Below are positions 42,951 to 64,000 of a stretch of 64,000 nucleotides of DNA, in pieces. The stretch is taken from the NCBI GenBank assembly GCA_035299065.1, contig DATGXI010000034.1:6232-70231 (forward strand). The letters run 5' to 3'. The DNA is from Flavobacteriales bacterium. GTDB taxonomy: Bacteria > Bacteroidota > Bacteroidia > Flavobacteriales_D > UBA2798. The notes under the pieces were generated by a model, which saw nothing but the letters and a program-made list of their open reading frames with translations, did no database searches and was not told the origin of the DNA. The position numbers were made by a program, and so were the translations under genes. The first letter of the stretch is position 1. Each line of letters starts with the position of its first letter.

Positions 42951-43047
42951 TCCGGTCAAACAAGGCGCAAGCCACAGGCGTGTGGTAGAGCCAATTATAG
43001 GAAATTCTTATTTGTAAAAGAAAATTTATTAAATTTATAAAACCCCT

Positions 43048-44828: not shown

Positions 44829-44834
44829 TATTAT

Positions 44835-47195: not shown

Positions 47196-47197
47196 TA

Positions 47198-48508: not shown

Positions 48509-48525
48509 AATTAATAATTTAAGTA

Positions 48526-51500
48526 CTAAAAACTCGATGCTGCCAACTTTCTTTTAGCTTCTTCAATAGTTTCTATTTTAGGCATTGATTCATAATATTT
48601 ATCTTCTATACCATCAATATGCTCTAAAATAAATCGAGATTTCGGATATTTATCTCTGTACTCAGATAAAAATCTATTAAGATCATCTTTAACAATCTTT
48701 AGATTTTGCTCGCTTTGAATTCCTATTTTATGATATGCTGAAAGTACACTCGAATTAAAGTAACCTTTATCCTCTGATTCTTCTACTTCATAACTTAATT
48801 TCAGAAGTTCAAAAAGACCTGGTAAAACTCTTATAGAAGTAACGTTGGACAAACTTCTATAATTAATTTCCTCTTTGTGAGATTTCCAATGTGAATTAAC
48901 CAAGTCGATTAATAGCTGAATACCAACTTCGTTATCAATAATTACTAAATGATAACATGCGTTGATTTTAAAACTAATATCATCCCTTCTTTTCTCTTCG
49001 TTAACTAAAAAGTCCTTTATAAATTCCTCTTCGTTAACCTCAGATAGTTTTTTGATTATTTCCCATATAGTACCCGAATCGCACTTCGAGATTATTCTCT
49101 TTAAATACTCTTTGTCTAATGTTTCTTCATAATAAAGGTTTATTAGTTCCCTTTTCTCATATTCCGACCAATTTTCGTTTTCGATTTTCGCCTCTAGGAC
49201 CGTGTAAAAATCATAAAGTCTATTTTTCAGAACGTATTGAAAATGGTTCTTAAATATTTCAAAAATTGTGATTCCTTGTTCTATATTATCCTTAATTCTC
49301 TGGTTCACCTTATCGTTATCAATAAGTTTTATAAGATGATCGAAATTCAAGTATTTATATTCTAGTATTATTGAATAACTTAGCATATTAAGGAGCACTT
49401 CTTCTGATACAATAAAATTGAGCTTGTAATGGAAATAAAAGAAATAATTTGCATAGTAATTAAAAGTGGTTGTATTCCCTTTTCTTCTCAAAGATGTTCT
49501 GAAATCAAACTTTGATAGCACTCTATTACACCAATTTTCAATCCACTGAACTTGGTTTTGATTTAGAACTAAAAAGTCATTGTGTATCAGAAGTTGTTCA
49601 AGTCGTCCGACACAATATCTTTCTACGTTTTCTCTGTCCACAAACCATAATTCAACCTTTTCCTTATCAATGGTTTTTTCTACAGAATCCTTTTTTAAGT
49701 AGAGCATATCTCTCAGCAACCATAGTACCGCACCATTGTACTTGTCTTCTAACTCAACAATTCTATTATTTATCTTTAAAATATCATATAATTCAGATTT
49801 AGTAAGTTCTTCCTTTTTAAAATCCTCGAATATCTCTATTGCTTGTGATGCCATTGAATCAATATTAAACAATAGTTCAAATTCTTGAATTGTTTGTTGC
49901 CTTCTTATTTCGTTATAGTCAACCTGTGGCAACTCTTCAAAAACCAAGTCAGTTTTACGAGATAAATAATTGCGAAACTCTTTAGTACTTACTTCCTTAG
50001 AATTATATAAATTTGTACTTATGACTTGCAAATCTGATTTTTCGATTTTTTTCTGGTTGTATAATTCGACAAATAAATCCAACGTATCTTTAAAAACAAA
50101 GCAACTTAGCAAATAAGATCTGTCCCTTTTATTTTCAGTTCGAAGAATTTGAGCTATGGCTTTTGAAATACTCTGCGTTTGAACGAAATAAGAAACCAGT
50201 AGTTCTTTTATATCAAAATCAAAACTTATTCCACCCGCGCTAAACCAAGAGAGACATGCGCTAAATACATTATCGTTTACATTTTCCGCTTCAATTGCAC
50301 TTTTGATTAACGTTCTTGCGCTTTCTCCTGAATCATAATGGTGCCTAAAATACTCTCCTTCGGAAGCATAATTAATTAGTTTTGTAATCGATGCGTCTGT
50401 CTTTACCGCCCCAATACACTCTTTTAAATTATAAATCTCATTCATTGAGGTTGATCCACCTCTTTCTTCCGAATCAGTTCTATATCTTAGATCACACCCG
50501 CTTATAATATAGTCTACGTACTTATCACTAAGTTCGTAACCTAGAATAAGATCATACATAGCAGTTCTTATATATTTATTCGCGCTCTTGCCAAATAACG
50601 AAAATATATGCTCTATTTCGCTTACTTCCAATAATCTTGAAATTGTTAATGCCTTTAATATCTCACTAACAATATTGACCCTTGAACGGCATTTATCCAA
50701 TAATTCGATTAGCCTTTTCTTTACAGAGCTACCATTATCTAAATCACGAAAATTAAAATTCCCTAAAACTCTAATAGCGTTTCTAAGAGTTATTTCACTT
50801 GGCTCATCAAGTAAATTCAACAAATATTCAACACAACCTTTACTATTTCCGAAACTTGTAAATTCATGCAAATTAAGTTTATACTCATTTATCCAAAACT
50901 CATTTTTTTGGTAATATGAAAATATTTCTTTAAAGATAACTTCCCGCTTTACAATGTCAAGTTTTTCACGTTCTACTTTTATAATGAGTTCTTTGTCATT
51001 CTTCATTAACCAAGTGATGAGATCATCATAATAAGTGCCATTTTTTATCCCTAGTAAAAATGTTATAGTATTCATCCAACTTGGAATTAGCTTTGTATGT
51101 CCAGGAGAATATGTAATTAGGGTAATTATTTCATCAAATCTGAGTTTGGAAAGATATCTTGCTGCCAAATATTCTTGAAATAATCGATGTTCAAATTTCC
51201 AAATCCCACGACTATTTTCAGATTTAGTGAAAAGCTTCGAATATTTGATTAAATCAATTTTTGAAGAATCATCAATCACTGATTCGAAATCAGAATTGGA
51301 AATCGCATTTTTTCCCATAATTTCCATTAGAACTGCTATTCTCTCCAATAAGGATAACGTTTGACTCTTCTTAAGCGTTATATTATCAACTGTAAGTACA
51401 TATTTCTTCTGGTCAAAAAACATATCCATCTGTATGAATTGATCGAATAAATCCGACTTATTAGAGGGCAGTTGCCCCTTCTCAGCGTATAAGCTCGCTA

Positions 51501-52668
51501 ACGTTGTTAGATGAAATGGGTTTACCGTTAACTCATACAGTTCTTTGTCTTCAATTTCTTTACAAAAGTTCTTATAGTCTATTTTATACCTGTTTTTCAA
51601 AAAGGCTTTAACACTAGACTCGTAAAGATTTAAATTTGCGATAACAAAGACCTTAAAAAGTTCATCAAAAAAACTTACATTATTTAATGAAGCGTGTTCA
51701 AAGTGATTGGTTCTACAGGACAAAACTACCTTTGTACTCTGATTTTTCTGAACGAATTGTTTAATCTTCCTCATTAAGCCAATAAAATCTGAAGGTTCCA
51801 CTTCATCTAGGCCATCCATAAAAACAATAAATTTTTCCTGGTCAATATTAATCCAATTCTTTGGCAATATCTCTTCAATCTGTTCGTTCTTATATGTTTT
51901 AAAATCCAACATTAATGGAAAATACCCTAACGACTTAAGTTTAATACAAGTCTCTTGTAATTCCGTAGATTTTCCTGTCCCTCCATTTCCAATAACAATA
52001 ATTCTTTGATGGTTTAGAATCGCTTTTAAACATGGGATTGTTTCAAATCCCTCTGTTTCTATCCGACTAGCAAATTCTACTAATACTCGGGGAATCTTAT
52101 CTTCTTCTTTATGTCTGATCTGATCTAAAAAAGTATAATCTGGAGCGCTATTATCCCCTTTAATTTCTGTAATTTGCTCACTTATGTCCTCAAGCATCAG
52201 ATTAATTCTCGTGCTAGCCTCTTTTAATCCTGGATTCGTAACCTTAGTAATTAATTGTTTGAATATTTTTATAAAGTCGGTTAACTCACCCTTAATATTT
52301 ACATCTATATTTTTCAATTCAATAAGATAAGGGCTTGTATGCAGAGTATGATCAAGTAGTCTAACTAAATCCTCATATTCGCTTTCATTGTTGAAATAAT
52401 TTTGAAATTGTTTGGCAAATTCATTAAACAAAAAGAGCCTGGAAAAAGCTTTACCCTTCTCTTGCTCATATTTTAAAACAGCATGAAAATAAACCGATAT
52501 AAATTCGTCTTTTAAATCAGCGGCTAAAAAGAGGTAACGATTTTTTTGAAAGAATCTAAACAAACTGTATTGCTTGTTCATTTCTTTTTTAGCGCTCTGC
52601 CAAAAAAAGAAAATGACCTTACCAGCAAATGGTTTAATCCAACTACTTAAATTGAATCCAGTTGACAT
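48526..52668 (-). CDS. NACHT/STAND P-loop NTPase (bacterial NLR-like), 1380 aa
   Basis: Walker A IIVIGNGGTGKST, Walker B FIVFMDGLDEV, then a SCRTNHF sensor-like segment. About 220-aa unknown N-terminal domain and about 950-aa helical-repeat C-terminus. Confidence 0.8.
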   Translation of the reverse strand: MSTGFNLSSWIKPFAGKVIFFFWQSAKKEMNKQYSLFRFFQKNRYLFLAADLKDEFISVYFHAVLKYEQEKGKAFSRLFLFNEFAKQFQNYFNNESEYEDLVRLLDHTLHTSPYLIELKNIDVNIKGELTDFIKIFKQLITKVTNPGLKEASTRINLMLEDISEQITEIKGDNSAPDYTFLDQIRHKEEDKIPRVLVEFASRIETEGFETIPCLKAILNHQRIIVIGNGGTGKSTELQETCIKLKSLGYFPLMLDFKTYKNEQIEEILPKNWINIDQEKFIVFMDGLDEVEPSDFIGLMRKIKQFVQKNQSTKVVLSCRTNHFEHASLNNVSFFDELFKVFVIANLNLYESSVKAFLKNRYKIDYKNFCKEIEDKELYELTVNPFHLTTLASLYAEKGQLPSNKSDLFDQFIQMDMFFDQKKYVLTVDNITLKKSQTLSLLERIAVLMEIMGKNAISNSDFESVIDDSSKIDLIKYSKLFTKSENSRGIWKFEHRLFQEYLAARYLSKLRFDEIITLITYSPGHTKLIPSWMNTITFLLGIKNGTYYDDLITWLMKNDKELIIKVEREKLDIVKREVIFKEIFSYYQKNEFWINEYKLNLHEFTSFGNSKGCVEYLLNLLDEPSEITLRNAIRVLGNFNFRDLDNGSSVKKRLIELLDKCRSRVNIVSEILKALTISRLLEVSEIEHIFSLFGKSANKYIRTAMYDLILGYELSDKYVDYIISGCDLRYRTDSEERGGSTSMNEIYNLKECIGAVKTDASITKLINYASEGEYFRHHYDSGESARTLIKSAIEAENVNDNVFSACLSWFSAGGISFDFDIKELLVSYFVQTQSISKAIAQILRTENKRDRSYLLSCFVFKDTLDLFVELYNQKKIEKSDLQVISTNLYNSKEVSTKEFRNYLSRKTDLVFEELPQVDYNEIRRQQTIQEFELLFNIDSMASQAIEIFEDFKKEELTKSELYDILKINNRIVELEDKYNGAVLWLLRDMLYLKKDSVEKTIDKEKVELWFVDRENVERYCVGRLEQLLIHNDFLVLNQNQVQWIENWCNRVLSKFDFRTSLRRKGNTTTFNYYANYFFYFHYKLNFIVSEEVLLNMLSYSIILEYKYLNFDHLIKLIDNDKVNQRIKDNIEQGITIFEIFKNHFQYVLKNRLYDFYTVLEAKIENENWSEYEKRELINLYYEETLDKEYLKRIISKCDSGTIWEIIKKLSEVNEEEFIKDFLVNEEKRRDDISFKINACYHLVIIDNEVGIQLLIDLVNSHWKSHKEEINYRSLSNVTSIRVLPGLFELLKLSYEVEESEDKGYFNSSVLSAYHKIGIQSEQNLKIVKDDLNRFLSEYRDKYPKSRFILEHIDGIEDKYYESMPKIETIEEAKRKLAASSF

Positions 52669-52728
52669 TTTTTAATATTAAATTTTTTGTTTTATAATAA
52701 GGTACGAAATGTCTTAGAGCAAGAATAT

Positions 52729-53445
52729 TTATGAAGGAGTATGATTATACCATTCAATTAATTCTCGCAATCTTTTAACTAAAATATGTACAGTCGTGCT
52801 TGGATTGGCTTCTAGTGGACTGTTATCCATTTTTATGTGTTCGGAATAAAGCTTTTCAGCACGATTAATCGCATCAGATTCACTTCCCATCTCTTGTAAT
52901 GGCTTAAAAATCTCTAAACCCGCATGTTCATATTCAAAAGTATCATATCCTTGATATGCCCGAATTTCAGTCGTTAACATATTATAAATATCTTGACGCG
53001 CAATTGGCGTATTAGCGGGCACGCTAATAAAATGCAATAAAAGCCACAATTCAAAAACCTCATTACTATATGCAACTTTTATTTTTTGTTTCTTAGCTAG
53101 TGTAAAAGCGTCCACAAACCTGGCCGTATTTCCTTGGGATTTTTGGGCATCATCTTTATCAAAAACTGACCAAACCTCGTCTACGTGCTTACCTGCTTCC
53201 TCATATAGTTTTGTTCTTTCAATTACGGTTTGCTCAACAACGCCCTTATAGTTTCTTCCCGTTCCGACTGCTCTAAGAAATACAGTTTTATCTGGAAATT
53301 CCTTTACGAATCCATTAAAATAGAATGGCTCTGACTTTTGGTCTTCACAAACAATTAAAAATAGATGATCATACCTTTTTGGCCTAACAGGTCTATCGTC
53401 TTTATCCTTTAATTCTTTTTTATGGACTATTCCTTTGACCGCCAT
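52729..53445 (-). CDS. RloB-like (Toprim-like) protein
   Basis: 238 aa. FLIVCEDQKSEPFYF, VWSVFDKDD and AYSNEVFELWLLLHF are the hallmark RloB (PF13707-type) motifs. Confidence 0.75.
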   Translation of the reverse strand: MAVKGIVHKKELKDKDDRPVRPKRYDHLFLIVCEDQKSEPFYFNGFVKEFPDKTVFLRAVGTGRNYKGVVEQTVIERTKLYEEAGKHVDEVWSVFDKDDAQKSQGNTARFVDAFTLAKKQKIKVAYSNEVFELWLLLHFISVPANTPIARQDIYNMLTTEIRAYQGYDTFEYEHAGLEIFKPLQEMGSESDAINRAEKLYSEHIKMDNSPLEANPSTTVHILVKRLRELIEWYNHTPS

Positions 53446-54782
53446 TTAGCTGAATGAATAAAATTTTTAAAATCTCCAAGAACAGGAATAGCACCATATC
53501 GACCTTCAATATATCTCTTTTCTTTATCTGTATCAGGTCTCTCTTTTTCGGATTTGAATTCTCCATTTTTTTCTTCAAAATAGATAAAGTCTGACAAAGT
53601 ATAAAGCTCTGTGCTTTCCCATTTATTTTTTTCAGCGAAACACACTTGGTCTCTTCTTAACTGAGAATAACTTAAAAGATTTGTATCATGAGTCGCAAAA
53701 ATCAGTTGTGCCCCATTTGGATTGCTTTCTTTCCTTAAAAATAATTCAATTGTATTTAACGTCATTATTGGGTGCATTGCAGCTTCTATTTCATCAATTA
53801 TAAGAACCCCACCATTTGCAAGAGCCCATAAAACGGGGCCACTTAGTTTAAATGCTTTTTGGGTTCCTGCAGATTCTCTTTCATTAAAATCCCAACTATG
53901 CAATTCATTTGTAGGAGATCCATCGGATTTATATGTTTGATGAATTGCATGTACAATATAACTCTTGCTGCCTTTTAATTTTTGAGCTAATTGAGTCTTT
54001 AAATTTTCCGGCATACTATGAGGCAACTCTGATTCCTCAAAATCCTTTGGTGTAATTTCAACATCATGTAAACCTAGTCCTAAGTTTGATAAATATTTCC
54101 GAATAGTTTCCTTGTATTCGTTTAATTCAGATAGGGATGCCGTTCTAATATCATCATCTGTATTTAAACCATCAATCATTACAAATAACTTAAACCACTG
54201 CATTATTTTCTTAGCCTCCTCAACATTTAAAATATCACAGGTGGATAGGAAAAGTGCGTTGACTCGCGTTGCCTCAATAGCTGCGTCAATTAATTTCTTT
54301 GACCCGACATATCCAGAGCTAACATCAATAACATTCCCTTCTCTTTCAAAGAGACTTACTTCTCTTCCAGCAGATTTTCTAAATAGCCATTCCTTTTGGA
54401 CTTCTGTTGAGTTAAATTCAAGACCGTATCTATATCTATTTTCTTCAACAACAAACGATATTTCAAAAGTTGTTGGCTTATTAGACCATCCATCTCTTAA
54501 TAAGAAAGGATCATAAGGAAGTTTTGTTACAGACGATGTTCTAGCTGATATGTGAACAAGCATATCAAGAAGGCTCATTGATCTCAAAATATTAGATTTA
54601 CCTCCTCCATTAGGTCCATAAAGTGAAATTGCATTCAGACCTTTATATTTACTTTTGGAAATTATGTTTTGAGGATAGTCCTTTTGTTTAGGCGCTGGAA
54701 CCAAACTCAAAATTTGCTCTTCCCCAATCGATCTATAATTTGAAACTCTAAATTCAAGTAACATAGCTTTGCGAATTTTCAC
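53427..54782 (-). CDS. AAA_21/AAA_15-type ABC-like ATPase (partner of RloB)
   Basis: FRVSNYRSI, Walker A YGPNGGGKSN, Walker B LIIDEIEAAMHP, and FATHDTNLL. The track start is GTG; the ATG at 54764 (MLLEFRV) is the more likely start. 19-bp overlap with the RloB gene. Confidence 0.8.
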   Translation of the reverse strand: MKIRKAMLLEFRVSNYRSIGEEQILSLVPAPKQKDYPQNIISKSKYKGLNAISLYGPNGGGKSNILRSMSLLDMLVHISARTSSVTKLPYDPFLLRDGWSNKPTTFEISFVVEENRYRYGLEFNSTEVQKEWLFRKSAGREVSLFEREGNVIDVSSGYVGSKKLIDAAIEATRVNALFLSTCDILNVEEAKKIMQWFKLFVMIDGLNTDDDIRTASLSELNEYKETIRKYLSNLGLGLHDVEITPKDFEESELPHSMPENLKTQLAQKLKGSKSYIVHAIHQTYKSDGSPTNELHSWDFNERESAGTQKAFKLSGPVLWALANGGVLIIDEIEAAMHPIMTLNTIELFLRKESNPNGAQLIFATHDTNLLSYSQLRRDQVCFAEKNKWESTELYTLSDFIYFEEKNGEFKSEKERPDTDKEKRYIEGRYGAIPVLGDFKNFIHSAKWRSKE

Positions 54783-54904
54783 AAATATATGACACTTGGA
54801 TCAATAAAAAGCGTCCAACTATGCCTTTTTTGCTATTTTTCCGTAAAATAGTGGCATTTAGTCTAGATAATGTGCAATAAATTATTTTATTGATTATCAG
54901 ATAA

Positions 54905-55267
54905 TTAAAAAATCGAAGAACTCATTTTAATTAGTTCTTTATAAATCTCATTCGCTATTGGTTCTAGTGCCCTATTTGAGTCCTTTATATTAATCTTAGC
55001 GGCTTTTCTGGTTGCATTGTGATAGTATTCGCCAATACGTTCCTCCCCCGCTTTCTCCTCTATCCCTAGAATGGCGAATATGGTTTCGCTGAGATGTAAG
55101 CAGTAGTGCAAAGCATCAAAATCTAAAGCTTCCAGGCCATAAATAAGCCTGTTATTAATTAAATCATCTTTGATTAGGGCTATTAAAAGCTTTTCCTGAG
55201 TGATTTTTGGCTTTTTTGATTTCATATCACAACACTTTAGTGCTACAAAAATAAAATAAAGTGGCAT
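54905..55267 (-). CDS. hypothetical protein
   Basis: 120-aa ORF. The likely true start is the ATG at 55225 (MKSKKPK...), because the first 14 codons coincide with a promoter-like inverted repeat. Confidence 0.4.
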   Translation of the reverse strand: MPLYFIFVALKCCDMKSKKPKITQEKLLIALIKDDLINNRLIYGLEALDFDALHYCLHLSETIFAILGIEEKAGEERIGEYYHNATRKAAKINIKDSNRALEPIANEIYKELIKMSSSIF

Positions 55268-55370
55268 AAAATAACACTAAAGTGAATTAATATTAGCTTT
55301 TAGTTGTCTTTTAATACACTTTTCATTGATTTTAAGTTCTTTAGATATGCTTAAATTGCCACTTTATTTA
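55253..55370. promoter_or_regulatory. divergent promoter/operator region with inverted copies of TGCCACTTTATTT(TA)T(T/G)TTTG(T/A)AGCACT
   Basis: The minus-strand copy reads from 55266 leftward and the + strand copy from 55357 rightward. The minus copy contains TATTTTTG (TAnnTTTG). A third partial copy (TGCCACTATTTTA) lies on the minus strand at 54845-54856. Confidence 0.5.
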
Positions 55371-55387
55371 TGTTTTGAAGCACTTAA

Positions 55388-55600
55388 ATGGTCGAAAAGA
55401 TGGTATATAATCGAATTAAAGCAGTTTTAGCTGAAAAGGATAAGACAAATATCTGGTTAGCGGATAAATTGGGTAAGAACAAAACAACTGTATCTAAATG
55501 GTGTACCAATGATGTTCAACCAACCATTGAAACATTATTTGAAGTTGCTAAAGTTCTTGATGTAGATGTCCGTGAGTTACTGGTACCAACAAAAAAATAA
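55388..55600 (+). CDS. XRE/Cro-C1-family helix-turn-helix transcriptional regulator
   Basis: 70 aa. NRIKAVLAEKDKTNIWLADKLGKNKTTVSKWCTN is a typical HTH_3 pattern. Confidence 0.8.
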   Translation: MVEKMVYNRIKAVLAEKDKTNIWLADKLGKNKTTVSKWCTNDVQPTIETLFEVAKVLDVDVRELLVPTKK

Positions 55601-55670
55601 TTTGTAAAATCACCAACTTTGTTTACAATCTCTCTTTTTTAATTAATAATGATTCCGTAGCTTTATTCAA

Positions 55671-56213
55671 ATGAAGCAAAGTCACGATTTTGGGCATATA
55701 AAATCAGCGTATCAAGAAGGATATAATGATGCTATTAAGAAAAAAATTGATAAGCTACCTACAACTGTTGAGAACTGGTTTGAAACTTTAAATCAAATTG
55801 AGTTTAAGTTTCTATCTGATATAAAATGGGTAGGTGTTCTAATGTATCCCTATTATCCAATAGGAGATTTATTCGCTGATTTTGGCAACCCATTTAAAAA
55901 GGTTGCCGTTGTAATAGAATATAAAAATCATGATGGCGCTCTTTTGGAAAAAAGAATTAATTCTTTTAGAGAAAAAGGATGGACAGTTTATACGCTAGAA
56001 AGTAAATCAGTAACATACACCGCTGAAGAATTATTCGACTACAATAAAACAGATCCTAATTTGGACTTTTATGAAATTCCGCAAGAAGAGTTTGTAGAGT
56101 TTGTTAATTTAAATAAAGCCAAAAACTCTCAATGTTTGCTATATTATATACGTTTTAATCATTTTGATTGGTTAGACGCCCTTGAGGAAGAAATGGAAGA
56201 GCTCGAACAATAA
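55671..56213 (+). CDS. hypothetical protein, possible DUF559/Vsr-like endonuclease fold
   Basis: 180 aa. The segment ADFGNPFKKVAVVIEYKNH...EKR...FREKGWTVYTL resembles the DUF559 core (xDF...xIExDG.xH...D..R...L...GW.V.R). Weak, motif-level only. Confidence 0.35.
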   Translation: MKQSHDFGHIKSAYQEGYNDAIKKKIDKLPTTVENWFETLNQIEFKFLSDIKWVGVLMYPYYPIGDLFADFGNPFKKVAVVIEYKNHDGALLEKRINSFREKGWTVYTLESKSVTYTAEELFDYNKTDPNLDFYEIPQEEFVEFVNLNKAKNSQCLLYYIRFNHFDWLDALEEEMEELEQ

Positions 56214-56529
56214 TTCTTTTTTTGTTACACAACTGTTAAACGCTACCGTTGCCTCAATAGGCACGTGAACAAAAGTTAAAATCACTAACATTCTTTTCAT
56301 TCGGCACGTTATTTCGTTTAAACGCATTTATTAGAAAAGAAAGGAAGGGATGAAAAATGCCACAACAAAATCAAAACATCAATTGTAAATAGTTTATCTG
56401 TATGACAACTATTGCATGGGGTTTCTCTTTTGACGGGTTCTCTTCCTCAAACAAATAGTTCAACCTTTCGTTGGTTGTTCGCAGAACCTTAAATTTTTTC
56501 CAATTATTTAATTTTTAAAATTTAAGATT

Positions 56530-57279
56530 ATGTCTAGTTTCACAGAAACAGGGCACGCAAAAAACGTTGCCAATTTTGAAGATCTCATTTCGTTCTGTAC
56601 CGGTTATGGTGCTACCTACAACCCGGTGAACGTTAACATTAAAATTCCTGCATTAAACTCAAAGTACACGGCTTGTGTGAACGCCATACTTGCGGTTAAG
56701 GTGGCCAAAACGGCTTTTGACAATTCAACCAACTCGCGTGAGCTTGTATTTGCTTCGCTCAAGAAACTCTCCACACGCGTTGTAAACGCTCTGGAGGCTA
56801 CCACGGCTGCAAAGGTAACCGTTGATGATGCAAAGACTGTAAACCGCAAAATTCAGGGCAAGCGTGCCTCCAAGGTACCCGAAGAACCATCCGATGGTGG
56901 TGGCACGGGTGCAGAGGCTCCCGTTAAGACCATATCGGTGTCACAGCAGAGTTATGACAGCCTGATTGATCATTTCATCAAGCTGATACAGATCGTGAGC
57001 ACTGAGCCCCTTTATTTGCCCAACGAGACGGATTTAAAGGTGGTTACTTTAAATGCTTTGCTGGTGAGTTTAAAGGCTGCCAACACTTCGGTGATTGGTA
57101 CCACTACTTCTTACAGCAACAGCCGTATTACGCGTGACAGTGCTTTGTATGATGTTACAACGGGTATGGTTGACCTGGCTTTTGAGGTAAAGGCTTACGT
57201 GAAGAGTTTGTACGGGGCAGGCAGTATGCAATACAAACAGGTAAGCGGGTTAAAATTTACAAAGATCAAACATTCGTAA
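56530..57279 (+). CDS. hypothetical protein (GC content like the core genome)
   Basis: 249 aa, Ala/Thr/Val-rich, followed by a strong intrinsic terminator. Confidence 0.55.
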   Translation: MSSFTETGHAKNVANFEDLISFCTGYGATYNPVNVNIKIPALNSKYTACVNAILAVKVAKTAFDNSTNSRELVFASLKKLSTRVVNALEATTAAKVTVDDAKTVNRKIQGKRASKVPEEPSDGGGTGAEAPVKTISVSQQSYDSLIDHFIKLIQIVSTEPLYLPNETDLKVVTLNALLVSLKAANTSVIGTTTSYSNSRITRDSALYDVTTGMVDLAFEVKAYVKSLYGAGSMQYKQVSGLKFTKIKHS

Positions 57280-57288
57280 TGTGTTTGA

Positions 57289-57316
57289 GGGGTTTCTTAA
57301 GGAACCCCTTTTTTTT
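57289..57316 (+). terminator. rho-independent terminator
   Basis: GGGGTTTC-TTAA-GGAACCCC (8-bp stem including one G-U pair) followed by T8. Confidence 0.8.
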
Positions 57317-57354
57317 GTCGTGTTGTGAACGATTAAAAAAAGAAAGCTGGCATC

Positions 57355-57599
57355 CTGTATTAGTGTTTTCCTGCCAACAGGTAGAAATCTCGTATCCGCA
57401 TTTAGTGTTCCTGCAACTGTGCGGAGTATTCTTGCGACTAACAAAAGAAAGTTAGCGTCCCTACTTAGTGTTCTTGCGTCTGCACTTAGAAACCTTGCGA
57501 CCTGAGTTAGTGTTCTTACAACTACGCGGAGTGTTTTCGTCTCCGCATTTAGAATTCTCTTAACTGCACTTAGTGTTCTCTGACCAATTGACAGTTTTT
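57355..57599. repeat. 21-bp-periodic iteron-like array, copy 1 (about 11 units, consensus about CTGCACTTAGTGTTCTTGCGA)
   Basis: TTAG(T/A) cores at 57360, 57402, 57465, 57486, 57507, 57549 and 57570. All spacings are multiples of 21. Confidence 0.85.
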
Positions 57600-57647
57600 A
57601 CTCATCAGTAAAATATACTCAAACAAATAGATGTTCTGTTCATTATA

Positions 57648-58550
57648 TCAATTTGGACCATCATAATTTGGGCCTCTATATTTTACTTTAATTTTAGAGT
57701 GCTCAATTCGCTTACGCCAGTAATCTTTGGAGGTCACTTTTGCCTCTTTTACGATTTGCAAATTTACCTCTCTCCAAATGACCCTATTTCTAAATCTTTC
57801 TGCTCTTTTTCGGTTGAACTCAATTACAGATTCGGGGCAATAAAAAGTATGGACTTTGTCTTTCTTTTCGTTTTCAAACACAAAGAAACAATAAGCATAT
57901 GGCGTTGTGTTCGAATGAATAATACGTATTTCTGAATATTGGTTAAAAACCTCTTTTTGTATTTGTATATATTTTTCATCATGAAGAATAACTTCTACTC
58001 CATCCACATGAGGAGATAGCACCATATTTTGATCTATAAAAGGTAAAGTATATACGGTCTTTAAATCGGTATCTTTAATTTCGAATTTTCTTTTAAACGT
58101 TTCTATTACTTCCTTTCCTTCGACCGTTTCTTCATCAAAAGTGTATTTGCCAACGACTTTATCCGTTGAATCGTACATTTTCCCTCTTTTAAATTTAAGA
58201 GAAGATATTGCCTTAATAAAAGAGTCCTTGGATTCCTTTTCCAATTGCTTTTTATCCTTAAAGTCGATTTTAAAAAAGGGTGGATCAAATAGAGAAAAGA
58301 GCAATAATGGTTCACCATTATGAATTATGGGCACGAAAAAACAACGAATATCCCATTTAATTGAAGAGTTATATTCCCATCTGATTTTACTCTTAATAAA
58401 ATTAAAACTTGCTCTTTTACCAGACTTCCAATGATGAGTCATGAGCTTAAATTGCTCATCCCATATTTTATGATCTTCTAAATTTTTGTTAATGGCAGCA
58501 CCTATAATTTCGCGATTAAAAACAAGTTTCATACGGTCTTTTTCTTTCAA
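57648..58550 (-). CDS. hypothetical protein
   Basis: 300 aa, AT-rich, Lys/Glu-rich, no recognisable domain. Lies in a roughly 1-kb segment that is absent from the second copy of the surrounding repeat. Confidence 0.5.
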   Translation of the reverse strand: MKEKDRMKLVFNREIIGAAINKNLEDHKIWDEQFKLMTHHWKSGKRASFNFIKSKIRWEYNSSIKWDIRCFFVPIIHNGEPLLLFSLFDPPFFKIDFKDKKQLEKESKDSFIKAISSLKFKRGKMYDSTDKVVGKYTFDEETVEGKEVIETFKRKFEIKDTDLKTVYTLPFIDQNMVLSPHVDGVEVILHDEKYIQIQKEVFNQYSEIRIIHSNTTPYAYCFFVFENEKKDKVHTFYCPESVIEFNRKRAERFRNRVIWREVNLQIVKEAKVTSKDYWRKRIEHSKIKVKYRGPNYDGPN

Positions 58551-58675
58551 ATATAAAAAAACATTTCACTTACAAACTAATATATTCCAAATCCTTTCGA
58601 ACTTAACATAACTTACTGACCATGACGTGTTAGTTTGGCACATATTTTCTCTAACCGACCTGTGTATCATTCTTG

Positions 58676-58961
58676 GGCAGCGTCATTTTTCAGAGAGGAC
58701 AAGAGGAACTTCCCGCCACCGCACGTCAAACACATTAAAGGGTTTTTAGTTTTAAAATTAGCTGGCATCTAAAAACCCTTTAATAAGTTTGCCTTCCCTC
58801 CCTGTACGGGCACCTTGAATAGGGTGTTATCGTATTTGCCGACTCTTTTTTTTAAAACGCTAAATTTTTGATTTGTGCTTTTAAGGGCAGGGTTCTTTAG
58901 TTGGACACGTTCTTTAACGGGGGAAAGGGAAAAGGTTGGCCCAAAGGGGTGTGCGCCCTCT
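58676..58961 (+). repeat. conserved non-coding module, copy 1 (possible structured RNA or regulatory element)
   Basis: Near-identical to 62037-62373 apart from a 50-bp indel. Contains a perfect 15-bp hairpin (58735-58749 / 58769-58783) and ends directly at an attC-like site. Confidence 0.8.
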
Positions 58962-59096
58962 GCATAACTTGGCGGTGGCCGCTATTGCGGGGCAGCAACA
59001 ATTGTTAAGGTAAAAGCATTATATTAGCGTAACGTTTTGGTGAAGGGTTCGGGGCATTTATTCCGCAACAGCAAGCCCACCGCCCGAACGTTATGC
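58962..59096 (+). repeat. attC-like site 0 (135 bp)
   Basis: GCATAAC-TTGGCGGTGGCC ... GCCCACCGCCCGAAC-GTTATGC. The terminal 7-mers are perfectly complementary. Confidence 0.6.
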
Positions 59097-59106
59097 GTAA
59101 CCTTTT

Positions 59107-59565
59107 ATGACATTCGAACAACATATTGACCGACTGGAAAAATTTCTTAAAGACAAATGCAAAATCGTGCGAGAAAATAAAAATTCGTTTTTTGCAGTTT
59201 CAGACGGACACGAGTTTCACTCGCCAATTTACATATGCGACCAAGGAGGAACAATACACGTTGGTATCGGTGATACATATGATTACTTTGACAAGCCCAA
59301 AGAACAGTTGGATAAAGCTGTATTGCGCTTTCTGACTTTACTGACGTGTAAAATCGAACGGACGGACTATTTTAAAGGAAATAATCTCTATAAAAGTACT
59401 TTTATTTTGCCAGACAATAAAACTGACTCCTATAACCAGGCTTCTTATAGATTCCCTTTTCCGTTTTGGAAAAAAACTAAGACAAATAAGATTATTCAAT
59501 TACCAATTATAACAGCTAGCGACATCGAAACGCATTTTGGCGATCTAACAAAAGGCAACGCATAA
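59107..59565 (+). CDS. cassette ORF, hypothetical protein
   Basis: 152 aa. The ATG is 11 nt after the preceding GTTATGC. The stop TAA is embedded in the next site's GCATAAC core. Confidence 0.55.
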   Translation: MTFEQHIDRLEKFLKDKCKIVRENKNSFFAVSDGHEFHSPIYICDQGGTIHVGIGDTYDYFDKPKEQLDKAVLRFLTLLTCKIERTDYFKGNNLYKSTFILPDNKTDSYNQASYRFPFPFWKKTKTNKIIQLPIITASDIETHFGDLTKGNA

Positions 59566-59751
59566 CAGGTCGGTGGCCGCTATTGCCCAGTAACAAGCAA
59601 CTTTATAAGCCGCATTTCCATATTACGCCAAGGGCGTTAAGTAAAATTGCCTTTTAACCGCAGACATCATAAATATTTTACTTAACTTGTGCTCTAACCG
59701 AAACGTTTCCATAAGGTCGGCAACAGCAAGCCCACCGCCCGAACGTTAGGG
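59560..59751 (+). repeat. attC-like site 1 (192 bp)
   Basis: GCATAAC-AGGTCGGTGGCC ... inner hairpin GTTAAGTAAAAT/ATTTTACTTAAC ... GCCCACCGCCCGAAC-GTTAGGG. Confidence 0.6.
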
Positions 59752-59771
59752 GCAAGCTACAAACAGTAAGT

Positions 59772-60062
59772 ATGAAAACCGCGCGCATTTATGTAGACTT
59801 TAATGAGATGGTTGAAGACGATCTCGTCCTTTTAGCAAAAGACAATTTTACAATTGATTCCCAAGGTAACCGTGTTGAATTACGCGAAGGACTTAAAGTC
59901 GACATTTACATGGATGACATAGACGACAACGATAATCCAGACAATTTAATCGCAAGCGGAATTGTTCTTCCTAACAACACAGACATTCCGTGGACGAAAA
60001 ATGCGCTTTGGTTGTGCCGAATAGATAAGGATGGAATTAGACATGAATCCGATGTTCAATAA
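59772..60062 (+). CDS. cassette ORF, hypothetical acidic protein
   Basis: 96 aa. Starts 21 nt after the GTTAGGG core. Confidence 0.5.
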   Translation: MKTARIYVDFNEMVEDDLVLLAKDNFTIDSQGNRVELREGLKVDIYMDDIDDNDNPDNLIASGIVLPNNTDIPWTKNALWLCRIDKDGIRHESDVQ

Positions 60063-60081
60063 ATAAACTTGTTTTGCCAGC

Positions 60082-60273
60082 CCCTAACTTGGCGGTGGCC
60101 GCTATTGCCGGGAACAGGGTCAGTTCAGGGCGCGTTTTTGTACTTTTAAGCCGGTCACGTTAAACAAAAAACGTTTTACCGGTAGACATTCATAATTGTT
60201 TTTTGTTTAACTTGCTTTTGAAAGTAACGTTTCCAAGGTCGGCAACAGCATGCCCACCGCCCGAACGTTAGCC
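60082..60273 (+). repeat. attC-like site 2 (192 bp)
   Basis: CCCTAAC-TTGGCGGTGGCC ... inner hairpin GTTAAACAAAAAAC/GTTTTTTGTTTAAC ... GCCCACCGCCCGAAC-GTTAGCC. Confidence 0.6.
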
Positions 60274-60323
60274 GTAATTATTGCTACCGATGGTTTAATA
60301 AGCACTAAAAAATTAACGATTCA

Positions 60324-61688
60324 TTGAGAACTTTAGCCGTCATATCATTATTTTTTCTGCCTGTTGTGAATTGTACTTCACAAAGTTTTGAAACAGCAGG
60401 CATGCCAACTCCTGTTGCTCAAATTCGCGATATAAGTATAGATACTATTGGAAATAAAATGTATACCGTAGGTATTCAAACACTGGATGGTTCTGGTATG
60501 CTTTCTTTAAATACCGCTTACATGTACGATGGAACCACTTGGACTTCCATGGATACTCTTTATAACGTCACTTATTGTTCCGCTTTTTATAATGGCGAAT
60601 TAATCATAGGTGGCGGGTTTGTTGACAGTGCTGGAGTTAATCAAAAATACCTAAGCAAATGGACCGGCACAAAATGGGTACATTTTGGTGATAGTATTAA
60701 TAATACTGTTTTAGGTATGAGAATAATTGGTAATGATTTGTATTGCATGGGTCATTTTACACACATTGGAAATATTAATGTAAAAGGCATTGCAAAATGG
60801 GATGGCTCTACATGGAGTAATGTATATAATTGTCCATTTACAGGAATTGTTGACTGCACAATTTACAATGGTGATTTATACGTAGCAGGAAATTTTGACA
60901 GCACTGAAATAGACATCATAGATATTGCTGTTTATAAAGCCGGAACTTGGCAAAAAGTTGGGGTTACGGATTATGTTAAGGGAGGTTTAGGATCTATTTC
61001 CTGTATGGAAATTTATAAAAATGAGCTTTACATCGCTGGATTCATTGCTAAATTTGAAGGTAACGTAGGCCATGGAATCCAAAAATGGAATGGCACTAAT
61101 TGGTCTGAAGCTGGAACAGGCGTTCAGGACAATACTAACGGGTATTCTACCTGGGCTCCTGTATATGATTTAATGGTTTACCAAAATAAATTATATGTTG
61201 GAGGCGCTTATTGGTATTCAGGCAATATTTATAGCCGTGGTTTTTCAACGTGGGATGGTAATCAATGGTGCGCAATTGACACAACATTTACCGGGTCAGT
61301 AAAACATGCCGTTTTTCAGGATACGCTTTTTGCTAGTTCAGCTACTGATACAGTTGCCGGTATTTACGTTAATAATCTCGCAAAATTTACAGACTTGGCA
61401 GTTGATTCCTGTAGTATTGCTTTTAGCATTGATGAGAATGAAAATTCAAGCATTTTGGATATTTATCCAAATCCAACAAATGGGAACGTAACGATAACCT
61501 TAAACAAAATGTTACCCGATGCCGGTTTGTCGATAATTAATGCCTTGGGTGAAGTTATCTTAAAAAGAGATTTAAGTTTTTTAAATGAGATAGAACTTGA
61601 TATTTCAAATTTTCCTAACGGAATTTATTTTGTGCAAATCGCAAACAATCAAGTCAGATCTACTAAGAAAATCATACTTCGGAAGTAA
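60324..61688 (+). CDS. secreted repeat (beta-propeller-like) protein with T9SS C-terminal sorting domain
   Basis: 454 aa. Signal peptide, recurring W-x-G-x-x-W repeats (KWTGTKW, KWDGSTW, KWNGTNW, TWDGNQW), and a C-terminal LDIYPNPTNGNVTI...GIYFVQI Por-tail. TTG start. Confidence 0.7.
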   Translation: MRTLAVISLFFLPVVNCTSQSFETAGMPTPVAQIRDISIDTIGNKMYTVGIQTLDGSGMLSLNTAYMYDGTTWTSMDTLYNVTYCSAFYNGELIIGGGFVDSAGVNQKYLSKWTGTKWVHFGDSINNTVLGMRIIGNDLYCMGHFTHIGNINVKGIAKWDGSTWSNVYNCPFTGIVDCTIYNGDLYVAGNFDSTEIDIIDIAVYKAGTWQKVGVTDYVKGGLGSISCMEIYKNELYIAGFIAKFEGNVGHGIQKWNGTNWSEAGTGVQDNTNGYSTWAPVYDLMVYQNKLYVGGAYWYSGNIYSRGFSTWDGNQWCAIDTTFTGSVKHAVFQDTLFASSATDTVAGIYVNNLAKFTDLAVDSCSIAFSIDENENSSILDIYPNPTNGNVTITLNKMLPDAGLSIINALGEVILKRDLSFLNEIELDISNFPNGIYFVQIANNQVRSTKKIILRK

Positions 61689-61745
61689 AAGGTTTAATCC
61701 ATCTCGAAAATAATTTCTCCAACTGTAAGTAGTATACTAGCAAAC

Positions 61746-61990
61746 TGAGTTGGTGTTTTCCTGCCATGAATTGGAAATCTCCTATCCTGATTTAGTATTG
61801 TTGCATCCTCACTTAGAAATCTTCCACTTGTCAAAAGAAAGTTCGCGTCCGTACTTAGTGTTCTTGGATCCGCAAAAGGAATTCCCGCGACCTGACTTAG
61901 TGTTCTTGCACCTGCACGGAGTATTCTCGTCTCCGCATTTAGAATTCTCTTAACTGCACTTAGTGTTCTCTGACCAATTGGCAGTTTTTT
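61746..61990. repeat. 21-bp-periodic iteron-like array, copy 2
   Basis: Colinear with 57355-57599. The last roughly 50 bp are identical (CGTCTCCGCATTTAGAATTCTCTTAACTGCACTTAGTGTTCTCTGACCAATTG). Confidence 0.85.
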
Positions 61991-62036
61991 GTTATCTGAT
62001 CACCAATACGTGTTAATCACCAGGCGTGTTATTTTT

Positions 62037-62373
62037 GGCAGCGTCTTTTTTCAGAGAGGAAAGTAGGAACTTCCCGCCACCGCGCGTCAAACACATTTAA
62101 GGGTTTTTTTTGTGTTGAAATAAGCTGGCATCTAAAACCCTTTAATAAGTTTGCCTTCCCTCCCTTTACAGGCACCTTGAATAGGGTGTTATCGCATTTG
62201 CCGACCTCTTTTTTTATTCGGGGAATAATTTGTCTTTTAGCCGTCCTCATGAATGCAAAGCATTTAAAACGCTAAATTTTTGTTTTGCGCTTTTAAGGGC
62301 GGGGTTCTTCATTTGGACACATGCTTTATCGGGGGAAAGGGAAAAGGTTGGCCCAAAGAGGTGTGCGCCCTCT
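62037..62373 (+). repeat. conserved non-coding module, copy 2
   Basis: Colinear with 58676-58961, with an extra segment at 62216-62265. Abuts attC-like site 3. Confidence 0.8.
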
Positions 62374-62602
62374 GCATAACTTGGCGGTAGCCGCAACCTG
62401 CCTGCCATAGCGCAAGCCAGTGCAAGGGCAGGCAGGGTGCTAGGGGCAAGGTCAGGTCAGGACACGTTTTTGTATTATACTGTCTCCGTTAAACAAAAAA
62501 CGTTTTATCGGCAGACAATCATAATTGTTTTTGTTTAACTTTACTTCGGTCGGTACGGTTTCAAAATTTGGCACCTGCAAGCCCACCGCCCGAACGTTAG
62601 GT
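62374..62602 (+). repeat. attC-like site 3 (229 bp)
   Basis: GCATAAC-TTGGCGGTAGCC, an extra palindrome CCTGCCTGCC...GGCAGGCAGG, the inner hairpin at 62488-62539, then GCCCACCGCCCGAAC-GTTAGGT. Confidence 0.6.
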
Positions 62603-62609
62603 GTAATTT

Positions 62610-62864
62610 ATGTCGACCGAGGATAGATATTACGTAACAAGGTACTGCAAAAATTGTGGCAATAAAGACAATTTCCATTTTTCTAAAAGGGAAATGGCTT
62701 TCGGACTTTACAGTACAAAAGCAATTTGGGACACCCCTTGTACAAAGTGCAAATCTGAGGAATGCTCAGGATCTTCAAGACTTGGCGTAACTATGGATAA
62801 GGACCTTTTTAAAGAATGGTCTTTAATGACGAATTATACATTGACGAACAGGATGAAGAAATAA
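62610..62864 (+). CDS. cassette ORF, small Cys4 zinc-ribbon-like protein (possibly the N-terminal part of a frameshifted gene)
   Basis: 84 aa with CKNCG...CTKCKSEEC. The ATG is 8 nt after GTTAGGT. Confidence 0.45.
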   Translation: MSTEDRYYVTRYCKNCGNKDNFHFSKREMAFGLYSTKAIWDTPCTKCKSEECSGSSRLGVTMDKDLFKEWSLMTNYTLTNRMKK

Positions 62865-63115
62865 TTCTTGCGAAAGAAATTAATTTAGCTCTCATACTAG
62901 AATTAGTAGACGATCCTGTCACATTGAGAAGTAAAAAACAAACACTCTATGCCGCACTTTGTGTTTTAATTTATGATTCAATAAACTCAAACAACAAATT
63001 ATTAGAGCTTGTGAGAACGGAATTAATAAAACGAAAAGAGGACTTTCTTAAGACAGAGCCATTTATCATGGATTATATACGGAAAAAAGTATTCCCAATA
63101 ATTGGTTTAGAATAA
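62816..63115 (+). CDS. cassette ORF overlapping the previous one by 49 bp in another frame (possibly the C-terminal part of the same gene)
   Basis: 99 aa. There is no independent spacing or promoter, and the reading frames abut at ...DLFKEW / (M)VFNDELY... Confidence 0.4.
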   Translation: MVFNDELYIDEQDEEIILAKEINLALILELVDDPVTLRSKKQTLYAALCVLIYDSINSNNKLLELVRTELIKRKEDFLKTEPFIMDYIRKKVFPIIGLE

Positions 63116-63120
63116 ACTAC

Positions 63121-63312
63121 ACCTAACAGCCCGGTTAGCGCAAGCGCCATGGAAGAAGCAACTTTTTAAGTCTCGTTTTCACATTACGCCAAGGGCGTTA
63201 AACAAAATTGCCTTTTAACCGCAGAGATCATAATTATTTTGTTTAACTTGTGCTCAAACCGAAACGTTTCCATAAGGACGGCAACAGCAAGCCCACCGCC
63301 CGAACGTTAGCG
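63121..63312 (+). repeat. attC-like site 4 (192 bp, divergent left arm)
   Basis: ACCTAAC-AGCCCGGTTAGCGC..., inner hairpin GTTAAACAAAAT/ATTTTGTTTAAC, then GCCCACCGCCCGAAC-GTTAGCG. Confidence 0.5.
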
Positions 63313-63331
63313 GCAATTTGCAATCACATTT

Positions 63332-63943
63332 ATGTTAAAAATAGTCAGACGAGAAATTGATGTAGCGTCCTTGGGTCCAGACGACCCCAGGAGTCCAAGT
63401 GCAAAAAGGCTTGCTCTTATTTCGCGTTTTTTTCTCTTATTTTTTACTTTTTTAATACCATTTGCTATGTATCGGTTTTTTTATCGCCCCGATACAACAA
63501 CAAATTTCATTGCTATTATAACCATAATTATTCTCGCATTTTTTGCAACCTATTTGATGACCAATCGTGCAAAAAAGCACTCACCAGTAATCAATCCAAT
63601 GGTTGAAGTTTTAGAAGTTAAAACCAGTCGAATAATTAAAAGAATTTCAAACGATGAAAACATTAGTTGCTTTTACGTTGACATTTTTTATGAAGGTCAT
63701 GCAAAAGTGCTTTTTTTGCAAAACCTTTTTGTTAACGATAAGGAATCTGAGAATAGTTTTCCAAATACCGATTTCGAAATAACTAGAAATCCCGATACGC
63801 AGGAAATATTCGAGGTTAAAACAAAAGGTCGGTCTTTTAAGCCAGAAAAAACGCTTAATCCCTTTACTGAAATGGACTTTGAGGAGAACAGAATTCCTGA
63901 GGATTGCGAAATATTAGATACGACCATTGACGCTATTAAGTAG
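63332..63943 (+). CDS. cassette ORF, hypothetical membrane protein
   Basis: 203 aa with two TM helices (LISRFFLLFFTFLIPFAMY, FIAIITIIILAFFATYLM). Starts 20 nt after GTTAGCG. Confidence 0.5.
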   Translation: MLKIVRREIDVASLGPDDPRSPSAKRLALISRFFLLFFTFLIPFAMYRFFYRPDTTTNFIAIITIIILAFFATYLMTNRAKKHSPVINPMVEVLEVKTSRIIKRISNDENISCFYVDIFYEGHAKVLFLQNLFVNDKESENSFPNTDFEITRNPDTQEIFEVKTKGRSFKPEKTLNPFTEMDFEENRIPEDCEILDTTIDAIK

Positions 63944-63954
63944 TGGCAAACAAC

Positions 63955-64000
63955 CCCTAACTTGGCGGTGGCCGCAAGCACCAGGCCGCAACCTGCCTGC
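63955..64000 (+). repeat. attC-like site 5, truncated by window end
   Basis: CCCTAAC-TTGGCGGTGGCCGCAAGC...GCCGCAACCTGCCTGC resembles the left part of site 3. Confidence 0.5.

Follow-up and report, generated by a model that had tools for sequence, protein, structure and literature searches.

The locus described here raises the question of whether a Bacteroidota chromosome can carry a gene-capture system of the integron type, and from which parts such a system would be built, in a phylum where surveys find essentially no complete integrons (PMC9024848). The window, i.e. the whole 64,000-nt stretch analysed, is part of contig DATGXI010000034.1 of a Flavobacteriales bacterium. Six co-oriented structured repeats are found at 58962–64000, each situated 3′ of a + strand open reading frame (ORF) and pointing the same way as the ORFs. 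A tyrosine recombinase gene followed directly by an attI-like site lies 16.4 kb upstream of this array and has the same orientation as the cassettes. The locus is probably a sedentary chromosomal platform for cassette capture, integron-like in its working but built from different parts.

Cassettes and their folded sites

A preliminary description, made from the letters of the sequence, had listed the six repeats as attC-like sites of a cassette array, and all six are present where it placed them. The array consists of the following elements.

58961–59097, + strand: attC-like site 1, of the short class (TAAC-to-GTTA span 129 nt; covariance model score 54 bits, E = 1.4e-9)
59098–59752, + strand: cassette 2, with ORF 59107–59565 (ORFan) and attC-like site 2 (59559–59752; model E = 7.6e-4)
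59753–60274, + strand: cassette 3, with ORF 59772–60062 and attC-like site 3 (60081–60274; model 39.9 bits, E = 2e-6)
60275–62603, + strand: cassette 4, with ORF 60324–61688, second copies of the repeat D2 and of a non-coding block (both treated further below) and attC-like site 4 (62373–62603, 223 nt)
62604–63313, + strand: cassette 5, with ORFs 62610–62864 and 62816–63115 and attC-like site 5 (63120–63313), whose arms are of two types
63314–64000, + strand: cassette 6, with ORF 63332–63943 and the beginning of attC-like site 6 (63954–64000, cut by the window end)

The cassettes contain ORFans or small ORFs of no assigned role, as in chromosomal integrons. The sole homologue of ORF 59107–59565 is itself, and ORF 60324–61688 carries a type IX secretion system (T9SS) sorting domain (Pfam Por_Secre_tail). 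ORFs and sites are closely packed. The stop codon of ORF 59107–59565 (TAA, 59563–59565) lies within the GCATAAC core, as had been reported, and the next ORF begins 10–53 nt past GTTA. The ORFs had been described as having one orientation and as starting too close to GTTA for promoters of their own; orientation and closeness are as described, and the spacing of 8–51 nt given then is corrected by the above values. With site 6 cut at 64000 in a source contig of 76.3 kb, the array runs on beyond the window, as had been supposed.

The 18-nt 3′ arm CCCACCGCCCGAACGTTA is present in five copies, all on the + strand (59076, 59731, 60253, 62582, 63292), and is absent from the rest of the 64-kb window, with 0.02 matches expected by chance. 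The 5′ arm TAACTTGGCGGTGGCCGC is found with three mismatches or fewer at 58965, 59563, 60085, 62377 and 63958 (chance expectation 0.03). TAAC-to-GTTA spans of sites 1–5 are 129, 186, 186, 223 and 186 nt. When folded as single-stranded DNA, every site gives a long imperfect hairpin closed by TAAC/GTTA, a check that the preliminary description had proposed. Site 4 displays an additional internal hairpin and an exact 3′ arm. The fifth site (63121–63312) has a left arm of another type, which pairs poorly with its right arm, and it also departs from the previously proposed core consensus, which otherwise holds, in that it begins ACCTAAC. A further feature of the 185-nt sites (e.g. window 60150–60215) is a conserved inner hairpin, CGTTAAACAAAA..TTTTGTTTAAC, with the core order reversed (GTTA...TAAC). 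The same hairpin in a contig from another sample (L013, 6950–7010) reads GTTAGCAAAAAAC..TTTTTTGCTAAC, a compensatory change.

Further sites with divergent arms are found in relative loci and in loci reached via the recombinase. Arm sequences vary widely between sites, the architecture being a single one: yyyyTAAC, a spacer of A, AG or TT, stem ... stem′, (G/C/A)(G/A)A(A/C)C, and GTTArrrr. There are two length classes, of about 124–129 nt and about 182–186 nt. The spacer is asymmetric, with 1–2 nt on the TAAC side versus 5 nt on the GTTA side. TAAC/GTTA is invariant save for one compensatory CAAC/GTTG pair. Unpaired extra bases had been noticed on the GTT-proximal arm, and the counts agree: 136 on the 3′ arm and 12 on the 5′ arm in 28 family members. 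Sites in all loci are clustered, co-oriented and placed after ORF stops.

The structure of the sites is under selection, and the stems are kept by compensatory changes. When 15 diverse short-class sites are aligned, 88% of cells pair; in shuffles the figure is 63%, with none of 500 as high as the observed one, and with slid partners it is 29–42%. Changes on both sides are found in 18/18 stem pairs of these sites, and RNAalifold, unaided, predicts the same stems.

A covariance model was trained on these 15 sites, site 1 being the only member from the window. This family-specific model was used for the site scans, the IntegronFinder attC model not being among the Rfam models. It yields 35 matches in 200 kb (window plus loci), with every strong match on the same strand as the cassette ORFs. 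In the window it matches sites 1, 2 and 3 on the + strand, with the E-values given above, and shows no match in the other 58 kb. Long-class sites outside the training set are recovered, window sites 2 and 3 included, with under-detection by this short-class model of long-class sites that carry a TT spacer; with filters off, scores are lower. A repeat scattered without relation to ORF ends, as in repetitive extragenic palindromic (REP) sequences or MITEs (miniature transposable elements with inverted repeats), had been named as the case that would speak against a cassette array; no copy is found outside the array in the window. Known RNA families were also sought, and Rfam shows no match in the whole window (gathering thresholds) or in 57.2–64 kb (E ≤ 1).

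An exact 18-mer scan of 185,579 representative genomes gives one true relative (L001, a Bacteroidota metagenome-assembled genome) and one chance match in a nonribosomal peptide synthetase gene. In metagenomes, 5 of 10 matches are true relatives (including L003/L006, L007 and L012), and the rest are chance matches in high-GC genes. Because 18-mer relatives are so few, the exact repeat is rare and the family is reached via structure and recombinase, not via sequence. Some relatives resemble a CALIN (a cluster of attC sites without an integron-integrase) and start beside housekeeping genes, a yggS-like gene for a pyridoxal phosphate protein in L003 (1–1267) and a heme A synthase-like gene in L001.

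Of importance for a cassette array is the relation between successive cores. Recombination at GTTA gives the bases after GTTA to cassette k+1, and therefore complementarity is expected with the next site and not within the same site. The four variable bases after GTTA complement the four before the TAAC of the next site perfectly in 23/28 junctions (12 loci), whereas R′ and R″ of the same site are perfect complements in only 3/29. In 100,000 permutations of the R′–R″ pairing the mean is 2.1, and the count never exceeds 10. Array sites are hybrid, i.e. the bases after GTT of site k pair with the R″ that belongs to cassette k+1. In the window the chain is perfect from attI to site 1, from site 1 to site 2 (R′ GTTATGCG complements CGCATAAC, 8/8), from site 2 to site 3 (GTTAGGGG complements CCCCTAAC, 8/8) and from site 4 to site 5 (GTTAGGTG complements CACCTAAC, 8/8). 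It reaches 7/8 from site 5 to site 6 (GTTAGCGG vs CCCCTAAC). It is broken from site 3 to site 4 (GTTAGCCG vs TGCATAAC, 5/8), where cassette 4, apparently chimeric, departs from the core rule.

The recombinase and its attI-like site

41426–42538, + strand: tyrosine recombinase gene, 370 aa, IntI/XerA-like, with Pfam Phage_int_SAM_4 and Phage_integrase
42539–42628, + strand: attI-like site, with a GC-rich palindrome (42583–42613), ATAAACAA, the crossover core GTTA (42622–42625) and TGCA

The best NCBIfam match of the recombinase is XerA NF040815 (203 bits, cutoff 220); the integron integrase model TIGR02249 gives 178 bits (cutoff 265) and matches in two stretches, skipping profile positions about 176–256. 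Six homologues show the same TIGR02249 pattern, with IntI scores of 189–219 that lie above those of XerD and XerC in all members. XerA-model scores of the family range from 203 to 225 bits versus the cutoff of 220, and the family is far below the XerC and XerD cutoffs. Relative to VchIntIA (2a3v), residues 12–178 and 245–320 are aligned, and 24 aa take the place of the 66 (179–244) that form the additional domain. The additional domain of IntI is absent from the window protein and from all six homologues scanned. Judged by its sequence, the protein is a tyrosine recombinase without the IntI-specific additional domain (intI_Cterm or "IntI patch") by which IntI is defined. The catalytic R-K-H-R-H-Y residues are invariant in 32 homologues.

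An AlphaFold2 model (mean predicted confidence, pLDDT, 86) has XerA 4a8e and 5hxy as top Foldseek matches, then 2a3v; the model suggests that the recombinase is related about equally to integron integrases and to archaeal XerA. Residues 1–63 (41426–41615) form an extra N-terminal domain, beta-beta-alpha-beta-beta-alpha, which is confidently modelled and conserved across the 32 homologues. Neither XerA nor IntI has it, and Pfam lists no such domain. This domain may bind the attI palindromes or the conserved interior of the sites.

The attI-like site that follows the gene ends ...ATAAACAAGTTA, and the TGCA after its GTTA represents four cassette-derived bases. After the stop codon a motif consisting of the palindrome, CC and TATAAACAAGTTA is conserved in five divergent recombinase loci, and in the window it lies 84 nt from the stop. 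The layout of a GC-rich palindrome and then (C)CTATAAACAAGTTA is seen in L017, L021/L022, L018 (core GTTG) and L023, with recombinases 49–59% identical. The first downstream site exactly complements the attI core plus four bases in L021, L018, L023 and the window. In L018 the two cores, GTTGTGCG and CGCACAAC, display a compensatory GTTG/CAAC change inside the core itself.

A strain comparison is provided by L013, a Logan contig from another sample, which is 97% identical to the window over 36347–42625 and diverges right after GTTA. The last bases common to the two are ...CGCCCATAAACAAGTTA, 84 nt past the stop, a comparison in which the exact phosphodiester bond of the crossover is below resolution. 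Beyond the breakpoint L013 continues with GCGG (GTTAGCGG), an ORF and an attC-like site with the core ..CCGCTAAC (8/8 complement), and the window with TGCA... Cassette-level variation between relatives with a break at the GTT core, named earlier as something to look for, is thus found exactly after GTTA. Together with the chain of complementary cores, this breakpoint bears out the earlier proposal of a cassette array with attC-like folded sites and breakpoints at the GTTA core.

Cassettes are found downstream in 6/7 recombinase lineages (49–100% identity), Flavobacterium petrolei among them. On the strand of the recombinase, attC-like sites follow the gene in L015 (59%), L018 (59%), L019 (51%), L021/L022 (49%) and L023 (Flavobacterium petrolei). 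The covariance model gives 10 matches downstream of recombinases (L015, L018, L019, L021, L023) and none in about 60 kb upstream. In several loci msrB is found upstream of the recombinase, and this synteny suggests a vertically inherited chromosomal locus. No cassette is common to the window and the other loci, so that mobility of cassettes between genomes is not demonstrated.

Two other features of these loci may be mentioned. Within the first ~25 nt past the recombinase stop, 4/5 lineages (L017, L021, L023, L018) display a GTATATTTGA box that points into the cassettes and is degenerate in the window. It matches TAnnTTTG, the −7 promoter consensus of Bacteroidetes, and may be a candidate cassette promoter. 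The Flavobacterium petrolei locus (L023, 12174–12307) carries a single cassette for a leucine-rich repeat protein, and its site has the 3′ core GTCA instead of GTTA; this cassette may be fixed in place.

The first segment of the array and other features of the window

42623–59093, + strand: first "cassette", 16.4 kb, from the attI core to site 1
42732–42764, no strand assigned: left copy of a 33-nt perfect inverted repeat, with partners at 58848–58880 and 62263–62292 (93%, before site 4)
57347–57606, + strand: D2, 260 nt, about eleven phased 21-nt repeats (..CTTAGTGTTCTTGC..), with a second copy at 61737–61996 (78% identical)
58640–58960, + strand: conserved non-coding block that runs into the site 1 core, with a copy at 62000–62372 that runs into site 4 (78–93% identity)

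The start of the segment 42623–59093, TTATGCAAAAGGCGCA, is inversely complementary to its end, TGCGCCCTCTGCATAA, in 8/8 core positions and in 15/17 overall. The attI core GTTATGCA pairs with TGCATAAC of site 1, and both mismatches in the 15/17 are C.A on the + strand. Because of this complementarity between the attI core and site 1, the segment is bounded like one cassette and could be a single mobilisable unit. It consists, in order, of 420 nt of non-coding sequence, a defence island, ORF 56530–57279, D2, a − strand ORF, the non-coding block and site 1.

The island (43.0–56.3 kb, 43000–56300) lies directly past attI and has a GC content of 0.30–0.35 versus 0.40–0.46. Its genes encode a 1380-aa STAND NTPase (NNH5 + nSTAND3), AbiLi/AbiLii (AAA_21 + RloB), a Schlafen/AlbA_2 protein, a PD-(D/E)XK protein and an Xre-type helix-turn-helix protein; AbiLi/AbiLii alone is named by PADLOC. 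The model scan shows no attC-like sites inside the 16-kb island. At the island start, two small ORFs are surrounded by a 35-nt direct repeat (42955–42989 / 44333–44366, 94% identical, palindromic core AAGCCACAGGCGTGTGGTAGA), which may be the attachment-site pair of another insertion.

The 33-nt inverted repeat is located ~107 nt inside the attI end and ~82 nt inside the site 1 end of the segment. A public contig of the same strain (L014) breaks within this repeat. Within the window the D2 motif is confined to its two places, and the other loci lack it; it resembles a row of protein-binding sites along one helix face. The 320-nt non-coding block abuts the TGCATAAC core of sites 1 and 4 and holds a 13-bp hairpin (AAAGGGTTTTTAG..CTAAAAACCCTTT); Rfam gives no match to it, and the other loci contain no copy.

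D2 and the block recur before site 4 without the − strand ORF, which is situated between them in the first copy (57648–58550, 300 aa, AT-rich, no Pfam or NCBIfam family). Since the second copy lacks it, either one copy has gained this ORF by insertion or the other has lost it by deletion. An IS110/IS1111 element at D2 and the block was considered and is unlikely, the − strand ORF having no Pfam or NCBIfam match. An attC-targeting intron does not explain these elements either, because the Rfam scan gives no group II intron match.

Elsewhere in the window, a complex tandem repeat (31474–32068, 165-nt unit x 2.4, with the 9-mers CGCAGATCT and CGCTGATCT) is found in an intergenic position after a 984-aa ORF. 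An 82-nt tandem repeat (8675–8878, two copies, 95% identical) is situated downstream of ORF 7177–8703. Two pairs of adjoining paralogous genes are present at 11847–15614 and 33681–38044, with about 73–76% DNA identity over several hundred nt (D3/D6 and D10/D16).

Mechanism, alternatives and known systems

The proposed platform would have as its parts the recombinase, the attI-like site directly past its stop and a folded attC-like site at each cassette 3′ end. Crossover would take place within the GTTA core or next to it. A cassette would be excised when two successive folded sites recombine at GTTA, and the excised circle would carry a site with a perfectly paired 8-bp R box and would be inserted at the GTTA of attI. 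Because of crossover at GTTA, the four bases after it would travel with the downstream cassette and would pair with its TAAC-side bases once the cassette is circular. Stem sequences vary freely yet stay complementary, and for this reason recognition is probably structural and on single-stranded DNA. Catalysis by this recombinase, a single-stranded substrate, the choice of strand and transcription of the cassettes are what we infer from these features.

Several observations weigh against this interpretation. Recombinase and sites are linked only by association, and no recombination was observed. In one of the seven lineages (L017) the attI motif is present but no site is detectable in the adjoining 5 kb, the motif is missing directly past the stop codon in L015 and L019, and arrays without a nearby recombinase exist (L001, L003/L006). 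In the window, sites 4 and 5 are missed by the covariance model, and the core rule fails at the junction of sites 3 and 4 and in part at that of sites 5 and 6. The 16.4 kb of the first segment far exceed any ordinary integron cassette, and it may represent a small cassette with the island inserted secondarily. Strand cues also conflict. The extra bases of the 3′ arm on the + strand resemble the canonical bottom strand, and mismatches compatible with G.T wobble favour the − strand (89 vs 26), which is more stable in 20/28 sites, counts that are non-independent in that they include related sites and a recurrent spacer column.

The sites could belong to an ordinary integron or CALIN whose canonical IntI would lie past the window end or at another place in the genome, the recombinase found at 41.4 kb being a bystander. 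The array does leave the window, some 12 kb of the contig are unseen, classical integron surveys commonly report CALINs (PMC9024848), and family arrays without an adjoining recombinase exist (L001, L003). Going by distance alone, one would class the six sites as a CALIN, as the preliminary description had allowed, since the closest recombinase is 16.4 kb off and is not IntI by profile. That assignment is less likely in view of the recombinase and attI-like site at 41426–42628, joined to site 1 by the first segment, the attI core and site 1 pairing 8/8 and 15/17. The location of the attI-like motif directly past the recombinase gene in five lineages, the strain difference in cassettes exactly at the attI-like site, the presence of sites downstream of 6/7 homologous recombinases and never upstream, and a site geometry unlike canonical attC make the bystander explanation improbable. 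Much the same low probability is given to a housekeeping Xer-type dimer resolvase with a dif-like adjoining site, at which elements resembling integrative mobile elements that make use of Xer recombination (IMEX) have piled up. XerA is among the best sequence and fold matches, msrB synteny in several genomes suggests vertical inheritance, and the attI-like core (GCGCCTATAA-ACAAG-TTATAAG..) loosely resembles a dif layout such as that of E. coli. Integration of a folded single strand of CTX phage through Xer is also on record (cited in PMC3091885). However, Bacteroidetes have XerC/XerD homologues, with a canonical 28-bp dif predicted in 19/19 genomes (PMC3025954, PMC3091885), and therefore a second resolvase is not needed. 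Moreover, the right half of the attI-like site changes with each cassette, the N-terminal domain of the family is absent from Xer proteins, and IntI scores exceed those of XerC and XerD in all members.

The least probable of the explanations, and very unlikely, is that the hairpins are RNA-level or REP/MITE-like intergenic elements (terminators, mRNA-stability signals, miniature transposable repeats) with no role in recombination. They are long, GC-rich and situated between convergently packed ORFs, their interiors are highly conserved between genomes, and covariation does not distinguish folding of RNA from folding of single-stranded DNA. Neither RNA nor a MITE explains the complementarity to the next-site core or the strain breakpoint at GTTA, however; the other 58 kb of the window are free of copies, target-site duplications are lacking, and each site is tied to an ORF end in the one orientation. 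A little less unlikely, though still doubtful, is the same platform with conventional duplex recombination at a short core (arm - 5–6 bp - TTAxxxx), the hairpin serving termination or protein binding. It would suit a recombinase in which the IntI domain for reading extrahelical bases in folded attC is missing, and the 3′ end of the sites (stem arm - xGAAC - GTTA) and attI (CGCCTAT - AAACAA - GTTA) do share a core-like layout. A duplex arm read by sequence would be conserved in sequence, and for this reason it is disfavoured: the stem adjoining the core varies in sequence and keeps its pairing (18/18 pairs compensatory). The 5′ TAAC arm, furthermore, is always present, in fixed geometry.

The capture platform described here resembles sedentary chromosomal integrons such as the Vibrio cholerae superintegron in having a recombinase gene, an adjoining primary site and an array of mostly single-ORF cassettes. 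As in these, the cassettes are co-oriented, promoter-close and often ORFans, and defence genes are among the cargo; each cassette ends with an imperfect-palindrome site (..AAC / GTT..), and sites are homogeneous within the array. Crossover at the GTT core, giving hybrid array sites, and covarying stems that point to structural recognition are likewise shared. In contrast, the recombinase lacks the additional domain, carries an extra N-terminal domain and is co-oriented with the cassettes, whereas the integrase of canonical integrons is divergent from them, with the Pc promoter in intI or attI. Canonical attC sites (aadA7 attC, the V. cholerae repeat VCR) have a central spacer of ~5/6 nt that is unpaired, with extrahelical bases located on the R″/L″ arm of the top strand, unlike the spacer of 1–2 versus 5 nt found here. 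VCR attC sites are 123–126 nt long and many sites here 182–223 nt. Thus the earlier designation as a sedentary chromosomal integron is retained for the cassette array and the chromosomal platform; it does not extend to a canonical integron, in view of the missing IntI domain, the co-oriented recombinase and the spacer geometry. Integrons of the Treponema denticola type also have an integrase co-oriented with the cassettes and, unlike this locus, retain the additional domain and canonical attC.

With Xer/dif systems the locus shares a simple two-domain recombinase core, most similar to XerA, and the XerS/difSL system likewise has a recombinase gene adjoining its site. With CTX phage there is a precedent in which an Xer enzyme joins a duplex site to a single strand that is folded. 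Unlike Xer/dif, there is here an ordered array of unrelated cassettes with folded sites of their own, one site half is variable, and the recombinase has the N-terminal extra domain. The pdif modules of Acinetobacter plasmids are also modular gene units bounded by Xer-type sites. Those sites are 28-bp duplexes of alternating orientation with no dedicated adjoining recombinase or attI, whereas the sites here are 125–225-nt hairpins in direct orientation. The locus may represent a state between Xer recombinases and integron integrases.

Messier and Roy in 2001, and IntegronFinder likewise, reportedly define an integron by an integrase with the IntI-specific additional domain. Surveys define intI by this domain (PMC2426708), and the domain is described as reading the extrahelical bases of folded attC, integrons being defined and searched by it (PMC2426708; PMC8138268). 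Smyshlyaev et al. report the insertion as "not fully conserved" in their integron-like subgroup (PMC8138268). For Bacteroidetes, IntegronFinder 2.0 gave only In0 elements and one complete integron, in Salinibacter (PMC9024848). Standard integron searches would probably miss the present locus, and because every integron survey picks integrases by the additional domain, a class of this kind and its cassette pool may have gone unseen. In the searchable literature, which leaves out most subscription journals, no description was found of domain-less integrons, of attC-like arrays in Flavobacteriales or of cassette arrays that accompany such recombinases. An integron variant that is widespread in Bacteroidota and undescribed in that literature appears to be present. 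With modest confidence, it can further be proposed that Bacteroidota own a widespread integron class, in which an IntI/XerA-related recombinase works with an N-terminal domain and a folded site of another shape in place of the additional domain, which it has lost or never possessed.

The definition of the integron may thus be too narrow. All genetic hallmarks of an integron are found here without the additional domain, and this arrangement recurs in six or more lineages of the recombinase, one of them from a cultured Flavobacterium. Provided that the enzyme acts on these sites, structural recognition of hairpins would need no additional domain, and a large reservoir of accessory genes (here ORFans, T9SS-sorted proteins and a defence island) would have been overlooked in an ecologically dominant phylum. 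The origin of integron integrases from Xer-like enzymes would then be directly testable with a natural relative that lacks the domain.

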